From a virus (Duplodnaviria > Caudoviricetes): 28,868 nt of DNA. The notes beneath the pieces are model-generated. The model made no database searches and was not told where the DNA came from. It was given only the letters and a program-made list of their open reading frames with translations. Each line of letters opens with the position of its first letter. Position 1 is the first letter of the stretch. The translations under genes and the position numbers were made by a program. Shown here one piece after another: positions 22,131 through 25,528 of this stretch. Location: positions 1 to 28,868 of IMG/VR virus record IMGVR_UViG_3300025368_000017; one strand, given 5' to 3'.

Positions 22131-22356
22131 TGCTTGGCCCTTTCAATGAATTTCCCAACGCTATATCGTCTTTATTAAAAATTTCGTTATACAACACATA
22201 TGTTGGGTTTCTAGGCGCATCGGGATTAAATTTGCCCCGCACAATAAACCCTAAAAACACACGACAAGCCATCAATTGTTCTTCACAACGAAACCGCAAA
22301 TGGCAATTGTCGCATGGGGAAGTTTCCCATTTCAATTCATCGTAATGTCTGGCCAT
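22117..22356 (-). CDS. Small Cys-rich (CxxC-x5-C-x6-C) putative metal-binding protein
   Basis: PCDNCHLRFRCEEQLMAC. Start revised to ATG 22356 (TAATG coupling). Confidence 0.65.
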   Translation of the reverse strand: MARHYDELKWETSPCDNCHLRFRCEEQLMACRVFLGFIVRGKFNPDAPRNPTYVLYNEIFNKDDIALGNSLKGPSNVEC

Positions 22357-22445
22357 TAAATATGACCCCAGCGTAGGTATAAAGTTAAAAATACCGTAGC
22401 CACGATCACTATTGCCATTAAACCGCCTTGAATAAACTCTTTCAT
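22356..22445 (-). CDS. 29-aa single-TM peptide, not in ORF track
   Basis: MKEFIQGGLMAIVIVATVFLTLYLRWGHI. RBS GGGGGA and TAATG coupling. Confidence 0.6.
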   Translation of the reverse strand: MKEFIQGGLMAIVIVATVFLTLYLRWGHI

Positions 22446-22456
22446 TTGATTCCCCC

Positions 22457-22479
22457 AAAAAAGATGCCCCCGTAGGGGC
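22457..22479 (-). terminator. Rho-independent terminator
   Basis: Minus strand reads GCCCC-TACG-GGGGC-ATC-TTTTTT, with a C(UACG)G tetraloop, just after the stop at 22486. Confidence 0.8.
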
Positions 22480-22485
22480 GGTTAG

Positions 22486-22644
22486 TTAAATTGATTGAAT
22501 TTTGTAATAGTTTGGATTTTTTCTGGCAAGAATAAAATATGCTTGCTTAATAGTTAATGGAACACTCCAAACTTTCCATTCGTTGATGTAGTCATCAAAT
22601 TTCATTACTACAAATTCTTTTTTGCCTTGTCCAATTTGTTTCAT
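22486..22644 (-). CDS. 52-aa moron-like hypothetical protein, not in ORF track
   Basis: MKQIGQGKKEFVVMKFDDYINEWKVWSVPLTIKQAYFILARKNPNYYKIQSI. Strong RBS AAGGAG, with its own promoter and terminator. Confidence 0.75.
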   Translation of the reverse strand: MKQIGQGKKEFVVMKFDDYINEWKVWSVPLTIKQAYFILARKNPNYYKIQSI

Positions 22645-22688
22645 TTTTACTACTCCTTTTTAATACCATCCCCCGATGGAATGATTCC

Positions 22689-22729
22689 ATTTTAGGCATA
22701 TTTTGAGAAGTATTATTGATCTAGGTCAA
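22689..22729 (-). promoter_or_regulatory. Putative class II FNR/CRP-family-dependent promoter
   Basis: TTGATCTAGGTCAA (22716-22729) is one mismatch from TTGAT-N4-ATCAA. -10 TAAAAT at 22694-22689 puts the box centre near -41. Confidence 0.55.
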
Positions 22730-22780
22730 GAAAATGAAAAATAATTGAATAAATTGTGTAATTTATGCAACATAAAAGGG

Positions 22781-22866
22781 TGGCCTACTCGTTTCTTTAC
22801 ACTTTCGGCCATATGAGGTGGTGGGACTATCCCGTGAAGGATCGGGGGAATCCAGACAGCCCCACC
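22781..22866 (-). ncRNA. Two-hairpin structured RNA element downstream of the exonuclease gene
   Basis: Stem GGTGGGGCTGTC/GATAGTCCCACC with inner GGATT-CCCCC-GATCC. Second stem TGGCC/GGCCA flanking GAA/AGUA. G-U pairs favour the minus strand. Confidence 0.55.
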
Positions 22867-22870
22867 GAAG

Positions 22871-23638
22871 TTAAAGTTTGTTGCGAATCTTAAAAAACTG
22901 CAACAAATGGGTAAAGCAATCCCATGCGGAACTTAATTCTGCCTGGGGTATTTCTATAAGTTTAACCTGATTTGTTAGCGCATTTACATATATGATGGCG
23001 CAATCTGCATCGGGTATACCAAGACCATTGCGATAACTGGCCAATTGCATGGCGTGTTCAAATGTATGCTTAATATCGGTTAAATCTTTTTCGGTTGTTT
23101 TAACATCACAAACCGCACCAGGAAAGCCTGTTATATCATCAGCAACCGCTGATAAATCCACTTTGCCACCAAAGCCCAATGGCGAACCAAAACTGCGTTC
23201 AGAATTAAATTTAATGTTGCCAAAACGGGCTTTCAGGGCTTTATCTACTTCATGGCAATATGCTGGCACTTCTGGAAGATAAACGCCTTCCATAAACGAT
23301 TCTATGATGCCGTGGATGTATGTTCCCCGTTCAGCGGCCTGTTTCCCAGTTTCTCTGGAATCTTGCATTACACGGGTAAGCCAATCTGATTCAGATTCGT
23401 TTTCTTGTTTAGGCAAGGTTAAAGCGGCAAGTAATACATTTTGCTGTTTCCAGATTTCCAATCCTGGTTTAGCAATTTGACTAATTACCGTTGTGGTGGA
23501 AACAAGTAGGCCCATTTCCCTGGCATCACGAACCGTAGTATTGCGTTCTTTGCCGTTTTTTCCAATTATGCGATAGGCTGGCGTTCCATCGATCTGATAC
23601 CAATGGCCAGATTCCGCATCATGCGTTTTTACTAGCAT
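22871..23638 (-). CDS. PD-(D/E)XK exonuclease (lambda exo / Cas4-like recombination nuclease)
   Basis: AAERGTYIHGIIE..SE..GFGGKVDL..CDVKT..MQLASY. Shares an operon with ERF and SSB. Confidence 0.85.
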   Translation of the reverse strand: MLVKTHDAESGHWYQIDGTPAYRIIGKNGKERNTTVRDAREMGLLVSTTTVISQIAKPGLEIWKQQNVLLAALTLPKQENESESDWLTRVMQDSRETGKQAAERGTYIHGIIESFMEGVYLPEVPAYCHEVDKALKARFGNIKFNSERSFGSPLGFGGKVDLSAVADDITGFPGAVCDVKTTEKDLTDIKHTFEHAMQLASYRNGLGIPDADCAIIYVNALTNQVKLIEIPQAELSSAWDCFTHLLQFFKIRNKL

Positions 23639-23656
23639 CTTTCCCCCGAATTAAAA

Positions 23657-23857
23657 TTAAGATTGCATTGAAAGTATTTCGTTACGCAAGATTGGATCGC
23701 TAACACGATCCGCACAAGCGGATATAGCCGTGTTAATGACGCTAATCAATCCTTCTCTTGTCATGGCAATGAGTTGTTTTTCCTCATCAACGCCATATTC
23801 ATAGTTAAACTTAACTTCAGTTTGCTGGTTAATTACATCATTAATTTGGCTAATCAT
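23657..23857 (-). CDS. Hypothetical protein
   Basis: 66-aa ORF with RBS AGGGGA between the SSB and exonuclease genes. Confidence 0.7.
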   Translation of the reverse strand: MISQINDVINQQTEVKFNYEYGVDEEKQLIAMTREGLISVINTAISACADRVSDPILRNEILSMQS

Positions 23858-23868
23858 TTTGTCCCCTT

Positions 23869-24126
23869 TCAGAACGGTAAATCGTCATCCACTATTGATG
23901 GTTTTGGTAGTTCATCACTACCAGCTTCTTTAAAGCCAATTGGTTGCTTTACTTCGCCAACTGATACCGAAATAAATTTACCCTTTTGGCCCTCTTTCAC
24001 CCAAGCTGAAAGCCAATGTTCATGGCCGTTCAACTTGATTGAACCCGTGTAATCTGGCGATGTGTCTTTAGTCTTTTTCAAATTCTTAAACAAATTGCCG
24101 TTATTTTCTTTTAATTCAAAAGCCAT
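23869..24126 (-). CDS. Short single-stranded DNA-binding-like protein
   Basis: [20 protein letters not shown]-like core and an acidic DDDLPF tail. Adjacent to ERF. Confidence 0.75.
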
Positions 24127-24136
24127 GTTTTATCCT

Positions 24137-24586
24137 TTATTCAATTTCGTTAATCGTAATGCGTTTGTTTGCAACTGGAACAGATGCGGCATTACCATCG
24201 TCATCTGATCCATCAGCGTATATAGCAAGCACCGCTGAAAGTGCATACCTTCTCATGTAAGTTAAACATGAACCCGCACCCTGGGGATCGGCTTTAGTTA
24301 AAGGCATTGACATAGATTGCTTGATCCATTCGCCAGAACTATGACTAAGAACCGTTGTCAATGTCATGTGCATGAGTTCATTATCCGCAAAGCATTGGCC
24401 AGGGAATTGCATAATTGCAAGTTCGTGTTCTGCCAATAAACTGCGGCAACTATCCAGCACAGAGCCAAGATCGGCATAGGTACTTTTAAAAAACGGATTT
24501 TTACTATCTTTTTTAGCATGAGTAAGTTTCCCCTGAACTTTTGATAACGCTAATGCCAGTTGGCCAATGTTTTCACTTTGATCCAT
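24137..24586 (-). CDS. erf: ERF-family single-strand annealing recombinase
   Basis: KDSKNPFFKSTYADL..LSHSSGEWI..PQGAGSCLTYMRRYAL..DDDGN. Start revised to ATG 24586 behind RBS GGGGGA. Confidence 0.92.
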   Translation of the reverse strand: MDQSENIGQLALALSKVQGKLTHAKKDSKNPFFKSTYADLGSVLDSCRSLLAEHELAIMQFPGQCFADNELMHMTLTTVLSHSSGEWIKQSMSMPLTKADPQGAGSCLTYMRRYALSAVLAIYADGSDDDGNAASVPVANKRITINEIE

Positions 24587-24761
24587 TATTTCCCCCGAAA
24601 ATAGTTGCAAAATCTTCAAAGATGTTGTGAAGCGCAGATTCCGCCTTATGCGATCTAGGTTTTCCGCAAGCGTGTCTGATGATCTCAATATCTTCACTCG
24701 TTAGACAATCAAACTCCATGTTTGTCAATGCTTCTTCCAGCTTTTGTTCAAATTCATCCAT
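24573..24761 (-). CDS. Hypothetical protein, first gene of the leftward operon (62 aa, MDEFEQKLEEAL...)
   Basis: ATG 24761 with RBS AGGGGG. The longer track ORF runs through the promoter region. Confidence 0.7.
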   Translation of the reverse strand: MDEFEQKLEEALTNMEFDCLTSEDIEIIRHACGKPRSHKAESALHNIFEDFATIFGGNNGSK

Positions 24762-24842: not shown

Positions 24843-25076
24843 GCGTGGTAGGTTTTGACTGGCGGCTCTAACGACATCGTAGCGGTCAAAATACAAGCGT
24901 TACTAGAGGGAAGATGCTGAAATAGCGCAATAACGGTGGCGAAGCTAGTGCCGTTGCATCGAATGACTGGCGAGGGATGCGATTCCGCAATGGATAACAT
25001 TTAAAGGCAAATCTAGGTAGGCTAGGTTTGCTCAAACCGCTTGGAAGGTGTTTTAATCCTAGTAACTTACTACTGC
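24843..25076 (+). ncRNA. Candidate multi-stem structured ncRNA (~230 nt)
   Basis: Nested helices: 24845-51/25067-73, 24853-61/24883-91, 24899-906/25059-66, 24932-38/24949-55, 24956-60/24976-80 and 25007-16/25022-31. Begins right after the rightward promoter. No credible ORF. Confidence 0.65.
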
Positions 25077-25272: not shown

Positions 25273-25528
25273 AAACCCCGATGGGTCAGCCGACATCATG
25301 GTAGATTATGATGATGATGGGTTAAAAATGTTGATTCAATATGGAATCACCGCAATCGTGAAGGAAGCAATTGAATGTTCGAGGAATTCTGGGTCAGTTA
25401 TCCAAAAAAAGTCGGGAAAGCGGATGCAAGAAAAGCGTTTAGCAAGCTCACAGAAGAACAAAAAAGTGCCGCAATTAGCGCCATTGAAACGCACAAGCAA
25501 TTCTGGAAAATCAAGCAAACAGAAATAG
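25244..25528 (+). CDS. Hypothetical protein (MKIQITTLFENPDGSAD...)
   Basis: Plausible N-terminal ~45 aa. The 3' part overlaps the replication gene by 154 nt. Confidence 0.55.
   Translation: MKIQITTLFENPDGSADIMVDYDDDGLKMLIQYGITAIVKEAIECSRNSGSVIQKKSGKRMQEKRLASSQKNKKVPQLAPLKRTSNSGKSSKQK

Follow-up and report, generated by a model that had tools for sequence, protein, structure and literature searches.

Why does a hairpin whose loop is a run of five cytosines lie directly behind a phage exonuclease gene whose ribosome-binding site (RBS) contains a run of five guanines? The question arises in the IMG/VR virus record IMGVR_UViG_3300025368_000017 (Duplodnaviria; Caudoviricetes), a linear record of 28,868 nucleotides (nt) with a CheckV completeness of 77%, which we have analyzed over its whole length and call the window. 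An earlier note had proposed that this hairpin works like the C4 and CI RNAs of phages P1 and P4, as an antisense RNA which silences or times the recombination genes of its own operon. Our comparison with related phages leads to a narrower answer. The hairpin belongs to a conserved structured RNA family, and the best candidate for its target is the RBS of the exonuclease gene. In what follows, C5, G5 and G4 are runs of five C, five G and four G, and related loci and genomes carry our own L and G numbers.

The element and its complementary boxes

The features needed here are the following.

22820-22866, minus strand: conserved structured RNA with outer stem P1, inner hairpin P2 and a 3' bulge (fold, conservation, compensatory pairs)
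22844-22848, minus strand: CCCCC loop of P2 (fold)
22817-22819, minus strand: ACC tail after P1, which together with C at -1 and G at +1 may be the end of an RNase P substrate, judging by its resemblance to one
22871-23638, minus strand: gene for a PD-(D/E)XK-type exonuclease of 255 amino acids (aa) (PHROG 298, E 1.9e-13; Pfam PDDEXK_1 below the cut-off)
23641-23649, minus strand: exonuclease RBS box, predicted target with conservation and covariation, ranked first in the window
22448-22456, minus strand: RBS box of a 29-aa gene, predicted secondary target, second in the window, no covariation across lineages
24590-24598, minus strand: erf RBS box, predicted secondary target in the lineage of the window only, third in the window, no covariation across lineages
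22666-22684, minus strand: 5' leader hairpin of a moron gene, holding a fourth complement at 22669-22677, not an RBS (fold)

The element starts 4 nt after the exonuclease stop and folds as had been claimed. P1 has 13 base pairs (bp), 22854-22866 paired with 22820-22832, P2 (22839-22853) has a 5-bp stem, and the 6-nt bulge UUCACG lies at 22833-22838, all on the minus strand. The folding energy is -24.8 kcal/mol (z -3.1); over 22760-22880 the minus strand gives a z of -2.5 and the plus strand one of +0.5. The two weak top pairs of P2, if opened, would expose 9 nt matching the exonuclease and erf boxes. We have rejected a coding role, since the window has no start there and the elements of relatives differ by insertions and deletions (indels) which are not triplets.

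The four 9-nt complements of the loop are exactly where they had been placed. They are the sole matches of at least 9 nt on the minus strand of the window, and the plus strand has none besides the element itself; 300 dinucleotide shuffles gave 0.16 such matches on average and never more than 2. Three of them are indeed at RBSs, those of the exonuclease, erf and 29-aa genes, which are also the three best sites when the element is ranked against the window. The fourth is a leader box that lies some 25 nt ahead of the moron start and is paired inside the 5' hairpin; the Shine-Dalgarno (SD) sequence of the moron gene is AAGGAG. This leader is present in L001, L004, L009 and L242, with a variant in L189.

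A G-rich RBS bias plus one chance inverted copy had been named as a possible explanation of the matches. Such a bias does not account for the four complements by itself, because random flanks around a G5 run reach 9 nt in only 2.8% of draws and other lineages provide 133 distinct G5 contexts of which a single one matches the window loop at this length, compared with 4 of the 7 G5 runs of the early operon (p ~2e-5; 3 of 6 without the moron site, p ~4e-4). The use of G5 by leftward genes is only partly as described: there are seven such runs in the early operon, and two genes of the early operon depart from the pattern, ssb with AAGGA and a 66-aa gene with G4 only. The statement that late genes mostly use AAGGA was exaggerated, as this motif is found within 21 nt before the listed start in 3 of 23 late open reading frames, and G5 in 0 of 23, although some of these starts may be wrong.

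Conservation in related phages

The scans of relatives covered the best 80 of 532 and the best 80 of 572. From 180 exonuclease loci we have kept 126, after dropping those with less than 22 nt upstream or less than 100 nt downstream and those with identical proteins. Directly behind the exonuclease stop, 49 of these 126 loci have the C5-loop form (type A), 9 combine this scaffold with a loop rich in A (type B), and in 26 there is a short hairpin with CUUCAC, which in most cases has a GAA/AGUA internal-loop hairpin as its neighbor (type C and C-like). None of these forms is found behind the stop in the other 42 loci.

There are 27 distinct elements of types A and B. The first 8 bp of P1 are paired in 205 of their 216 cells, with G-C, C-G, U-A, A-U and G-U pairs replacing each other; permuted 3' arms gave a mean of 146 paired cells and a maximum of 173, in a comparison where setting the register for each sequence favors pairing. 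Pairs were counted from the stem ends because MAFFT and RNAalifold failed to register this indel-rich stem (5 pairs). The P2 stem has at least eight different sequences, all of them around the same C5 loop. The distance from the exonuclease stop to the start of the stem is 4-9 nt in 25 of the 27. This element is a conserved structured RNA family without an entry in Rfam.

The ends of the element are conserved as well. There is a pyrimidine at -1 in 26 of the 27 elements and an ACC tail in 24, with a full ACCA in 2; the G at +1, found in all 27, was required by the parser. The distance between the start of a UUC motif and the tail is 17-22 nt, mostly 18-20, which is close to the T-loop geometry of transfer RNA (tRNA). 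Bacterial RNase P is described in PMC4919922 as preferring a U at -1 and a 3' RCCA.

The window has one copy of the element, as does each of three complete genomes. A covariance model built from 12 type-A elements found no extra copy in any of them, and no copy in loci without the scaffold apart from one weak match (E 0.26) in L268, a locus with neither A, B nor C form. Loose pattern scans were discarded as a source of further copies: their matches were mostly due to chance, and the type A or B folds among them adjoined this exonuclease. Two look-alikes from these scans, L048 and L545, are unconfirmed.

A strong GC stem directly after a stop could be the intrinsic terminator of the erf-ssb-exo operon, and some relatives (L008, L011) have a U-run after the ACC. 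We consider this very improbable, as the window has no U-tract after the element, within 2 nt of the stem, the terminator scan of the window does not list it, and a terminator needs no conserved ACC spacer, C5 loop or bulge. Another proposal has even less chance of being right, namely that a mobile or invertible cassette holds the exonuclease gene, with the RBS box and the loop as its flanking inverted repeats at the DNA level. The two 9-mers are certainly inverted on either side of the gene, but an RNA is indicated by the G-U pairs and by the strand asymmetry of the fold, a search for a tyrosine recombinase gave none, and gene and element have the same relative orientation in 49 of 49 type-A loci.

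Pairing with the exonuclease ribosome-binding site

The C5 loop and G-rich RBSs go together. The exonuclease RBS has G5 in 40 and G4 in 8 of the 49 type-A loci, and G5 in 0 and G4 in 3 of the 77 loci without the C5 loop; in L501 and L503 it is a G4. The single type-A exception, L194, has an inserted gene of 157 aa at the exonuclease start, and this gene carries a G5 RBS. Other G5-ATG sites follow the same distribution: type A has 133 of them in 201 kb, or 0.66 per kb, and the densities are 0.03 per kb for B, 0.065 for C and 0.06 for the loci without any of the forms. Counting any ATG, whole records show 3-11 such sites in eight of type A, mostly in the early region, 0, 1 and 1 in three of type B, and 1 and 3 in two with none of the forms. 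There is about a tenfold excess of G5 RBSs in the early operons of type A, which extends to genes of the divergent operon. Avoidance of GGAGG, which is absent from both strands of the window, was rejected as the reason for G5 use, since types A, B and C all show it.

The flanks of the loop give a more specific signal. Cognate loop flanks and exonuclease RBSs pair over 7.60 contiguous nt, compared with 6.24 when permuted (p=0.0056, six deep lineages); five target classes were tried, and the 6-8 lineages were picked after the data had been seen. Without a second box in L011 the lengths are 7.04 and 6.01 nt (p=0.0056), and with opening energies included p is 0.010, 0.032 and 0.004 for 6, 7 and 8 lineages. 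In L011 the loop is long and contains two C-boxes, of which one matches the G4 exonuclease RBS over 9 nt and the other the SSB-like gene over 8 nt. In L321 both partners of the pairing have changed flanks. The sister of L321, L565, has neither C5 nor G5; here the bulge has a 7-nt match to the SD of the exonuclease gene of L565 itself. These comparisons are moderate evidence that the RNA pairs with the exonuclease RBS.

The covariation concerns the exonuclease gene only, which suggests that this gene is the conserved target and that the remaining boxes are optional. As a conserved function, the coordinated silencing of recombination genes which the earlier note inferred is not supported. The covariation of loop and RBS boxes in relatives for which it proposed to look is seen at one of its targets. 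Several C5 lineages have no G-run at erf/SSB and membrane-peptide genes.

Several results speak against pairing with the exonuclease RBS as the function of the element. The loop flanks do not covary with the RBSs of erf/SSB (p=0.38), of the small membrane-peptide gene of the 29-aa type (p=0.19) or of the pooled other G5 genes (p=0.26 and 0.38). In L214 and L488 the cognate RNA ranks only sixth of ten, and the accessibility test became weaker when L488 was added. The lineage of L189 has a match of just 5-6 nt. The exonuclease RBS is second and third among the non-self sites of G003 and G001, respectively, and outside the top 14 predicted sites of G002. The A-rich loop of type B has no predicted binding to its own exonuclease RBS, so the scaffold has a role without the C5 loop. 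On quick exonuclease trees (108 and 143 proteins) type A is nearly one clade and the loop shows 2 changes of presence or absence. The independent contrasts between type A and other loci amount to 2 pairs, both concordant, which puts significance out of reach for such a test. Finally, the tail is an ACC, seldom a full RCCA, its final A being mostly missing.

Part of this would be expected if the element were only a tRNA-like signal for processing or stabilization, the C5 loop and the G-rich RBSs having been inherited together in one clade. Such an explanation agrees with the near-single clade of type A, with types B and C, which retain the stem and/or the CUUCAC motif without the C5 loop, with the T-loop-like position of the UUC motif, and with the fact that tRNAs and other hairpins occupy the same slot behind the exonuclease in some relatives. 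Nevertheless, it leaves unexplained the covariation of the flanks, the contrast between 4 of 7 matches in the window and 1 of 133 in foreign contexts, the second box of L011, the match of L565 and the persistence of the C5 loop while the sequence of P2 turns over. We think it unlikely, yet it is the strongest of the competing explanations.

A possible brake on exonuclease synthesis

A C-rich loop complementary to the exonuclease RBS, in the window and in relatives, probably acts as a brake on exonuclease synthesis. The explanation we prefer has about an even chance of being correct: the C-loop RNA, likely freed by RNase P, pairs with the exonuclease RBS and limits synthesis of the enzyme. We infer co-transcription, cleavage, accumulation of a small RNA and repression from the structure, position, complementarity and covariation described above. 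The early transcript would run through the exonuclease gene into the element, host RNase P would cut at G22866, and a small RNA of about 50 nt would accumulate. Once free, it would pair through its C-loop with the exonuclease SD. With the two weak top pairs open, a 9-bp duplex could form and outcompete the tail of 16S ribosomal RNA: the raw energy of the loop duplex is -15 to -17 kcal/mol, compared with about -8.5 for an 8-mer of the 16S tail (-17 and -8.6 for the 9-bp duplex and the tail). As the RNA is encoded behind the exonuclease cistron and would be made only after it, it would act as a delayed negative feedback on the nuclease.

In the phage of the window, the erf and 29-aa RBSs would be secondary targets, and other early genes with G5 weaker, optional ones. 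The C5 loop is predicted to pair better with G5 than with AAGGA or AAGGAG sites, with which it pairs poorly, so the RNA would spare ssb, the moron gene and the late genes.

The same result bears on the idea that the RNA is a general anti-Shine-Dalgarno decoy, resetting translation of many host or phage messenger RNAs (mRNAs) during infection. Other lineages do have CU-rich loops in this slot with no cognate match at the exonuclease. However, a C5 loop is poorly suited to AAGGA and AAGGAG, and the covariation singles out one phage gene; we regard a decoy as improbable.

Repression by the loop in cis deserves more attention, although it is doubtful and slightly less likely than a signal for processing only. 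Here no free small RNA is required: after its transcription the loop would reach back some 790 nt to the exonuclease RBS on its own mRNA and thereby end a brief period of translation. Covariation limited to the gene immediately upstream, a fixed position beside its stop and the fact that the window and three complete genomes have just one copy each all fit. On the other hand, the conserved -1, +1 and ACC ends suggest cleavage, and a fold-back cannot reach the G5 RBSs of the divergent operon, which share in the enrichment of G5 in type-A phages.

If the preferred explanation is true, an unrelated RNA family works in a C4-like way in apparently lytic, uncultured phages, with delayed feedback on the nuclease encoded upstream. 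It would also give a testable reason for the presence of GGGGG instead of the usual SD at early genes. The RNA and its RBS form a small matched pair with natural variants. Even without repression, an RNA family missing from Rfam is conserved in 49 type-A and 9 type-B loci out of 126.

A more speculative extension has three parts, which we consider rather unlikely to be all correct together. GGGGG would be a private SD code for the early genes of lytic phages, read by an interchangeable RNA released by RNase P; the initiation sites would be the address of the regulon and form a protein-free timer for early-gene shut-off; and sister lineages would swap in other pyrimidine loops for other types of SD.

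Comparison with known RNAs

C4- and CI-type RNAs are immunity switches of temperate phages, and they lie upstream of their targets; the RNA described here is downstream of its predicted target. C4 is composed of three stem-loops and starts with GGW at the base of P1, the place of its cleavage by RNase P; it uses two loops, one of them on an RBS, as PMC5320573 and PMC12197685 describe. P4 CI is treated in PMC3632133.

The element resembles C4 (P1/P7, RF01695) and P4 CI in several respects. All are small RNAs within a phage early transcript. The outer stem opens at GG and finishes near CCACC, as in the C4 seed rows of the PMC2864571 supplement. One loop is complementary to a target RBS, in our case over 9 nt, with covariation at the exonuclease RBS and predicted pairing. 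A three-helix junction is predicted for type B and part of type A; the best fold of the window is P1, P2 and the bulge.

There are also clear differences. The elements are about 47-70 nt long, compared with about 77 nt for C4. Their predicted target is an exonuclease, while C4 controls the antirepressor (icd-ant) operon of a temperate phage. The phages here show no sign of lysogeny: neither a tyrosine integrase nor an S24 repressor domain was detected in the window and four complete relatives (5 of 5 records), where one HTH_3 match below the cut-off was the only trace, so the statement that no repressor is visible still stands. The phages which carry the C5 RNA look lytic.

The second pairing of C4 (a'/b') is not seen in the lineage of the window and is weak in one other clade. 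No type shows an enrichment of GTGAAG, a candidate for the second target of the CUUCAC motif. The CUUCAC region has a perfect 9-nt complement at the RBS of a replication gene (25357-25365, plus strand); this box was rejected as a conserved second target, being found only in the window and the near-identical L001 among 35 distinct contexts. In one clade, which is not that of the window, the region pairs with codons 3-5 of the exonuclease gene (mean -10.3 compared with -3.9 kcal/mol). This pairing was rejected too: it failed two controls, with p=0.38 within the clade and a codon conservation no higher than 15/72 fourfold columns.

Covariance-model searches do not place the element in C4. RF01695 has no match in the window (E up to 1), in 22740-22900 (E up to 10), in any of 5 genomes or in 18 and 10 related loci. 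A scan of all 4227 Rfam families, c4-2 included, gave only chance-level eukaryotic matches over the element. The comparison with C4 and CI proposed earlier is therefore good for the ends and for the loop complementary to an RBS, and fails as to family membership. The best reading of the sequences is that this RNA would work in a C4-like way, as an anti-Shine-Dalgarno RNA, without being a member of the Rfam C4 family.

RNAIII, RsaE and the cuckoo RNAs are chromosomal anti-Shine-Dalgarno small RNAs with C-rich loops, which regulate host genes in trans. They share with our element an unpaired run of C in a loop, which seeds pairing to a G-rich SD. Unlike them, the element is encoded by a phage, its ends resemble those of a tRNA and the sequence it reads is GGGGG, where theirs is GGAGG; searches with these families gave no match at the element. 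SdhX, a small RNA derived from a 3' end which acts on its own operon, is described in PMC6393394 as made by RNase E and dependent on Hfq. Our RNA would likewise derive from the 3' side of an operon mRNA, but its ends suggest RNase P and its recognition element is a structured loop.

We have found no published description of this RNA in a search which did not extend to the supplement of PMC5737381 and files 1, 2 and 4 of PMC10690425, any of which could list it. A motif search of file 5 of PMC2864571 gave only gapped rows of other motifs, and six supplementary files of PMC10690425 gave no match.

The early region and other features

Head, tail and lysis genes, the late genes, are oriented rightward and extend up to 20463. 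The leftward early operon has a 62-aa gene, erf, the SSB-like gene, the 66-aa gene and the exonuclease gene. The remaining features of this region are the following.

24137-24586, minus strand: Erf single-strand annealing protein, 149 aa (Pfam ERF, E 2e-29)
23869-24126, minus strand: SSB-like gene with an AAGGA RBS, in the same operon as erf and the exonuclease gene, not a predicted target
22356-22445, minus strand: gene for a 29-aa hydrophobic peptide, with homologues alongside every type of element
22782-22810, minus strand: second hairpin, with a GAA/AGUA internal loop and ACC after it (fold)
24852-24975, plus strand: Rfam Betaproteobacteria-1 RNA (RF02932), in the divergent gap upstream of the early operon (95 bits, cut-off 49.4)

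The internal loop of the second hairpin is presumably loop-E-like, and the hairpin has no Rfam match in the window. We have seen the GAA/AGUA motif in 25 viral loci, mostly of unrelated phages, with a variable insert and often followed by ACC.

Betaproteobacteria-1 RNA accompanies the element in these phages at a distance of about 2 kb, encoded on the opposite strand, and is a separate element with another fold. It is also present in the divergent early gap of L006, L011, L189, L201, L218, L280 and L565. Its second loop has a G5 run in six of these seven relatives, and none in the window and L006.

The moron cassette (22486-22760, minus strand) has its own promoter-like site and terminator. 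It is missing from the near-identical L002 and L003, and L001 has a different gene in its place.

Just behind the slot of the C5-type RNA, many type A, B and C loci have a larger conserved element, of about 95 nt, in which two loops are complementary to each other and could form a pseudoknot (in L006 from about 4825). It has no Rfam match and is not present in the window; in L222 it is followed by a tRNA. Hairpins with CU-rich, anti-SD-like loops are found in the slot itself in L605, L607, L613, L619, L636, L639, L642, L643 and L644, where no cognate match at the exonuclease RBS was found.

A similar, putatively lysine/arginine-rich stretch precedes the exonuclease start in two groups of loci: it reads AGG GGA, which makes a G4, in the C5 lineages L189, L219 and L226, and CGT GGA in L280, L281 and L288, which lack the C5 RNA.

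We have found no close cultured relative of the phage of the window. Four genome matches were rejected as host candidates, being short contigs of metagenome-assembled genomes from unrelated taxa. The window is strongly depleted in likely restriction sites: CGCG and ACGT are absent, and CCGG occurs 4 times where 136 are expected. CACTG/CAGTG and GCAGC/GCTGC are also absent, and many 6-nt palindromes are depleted.

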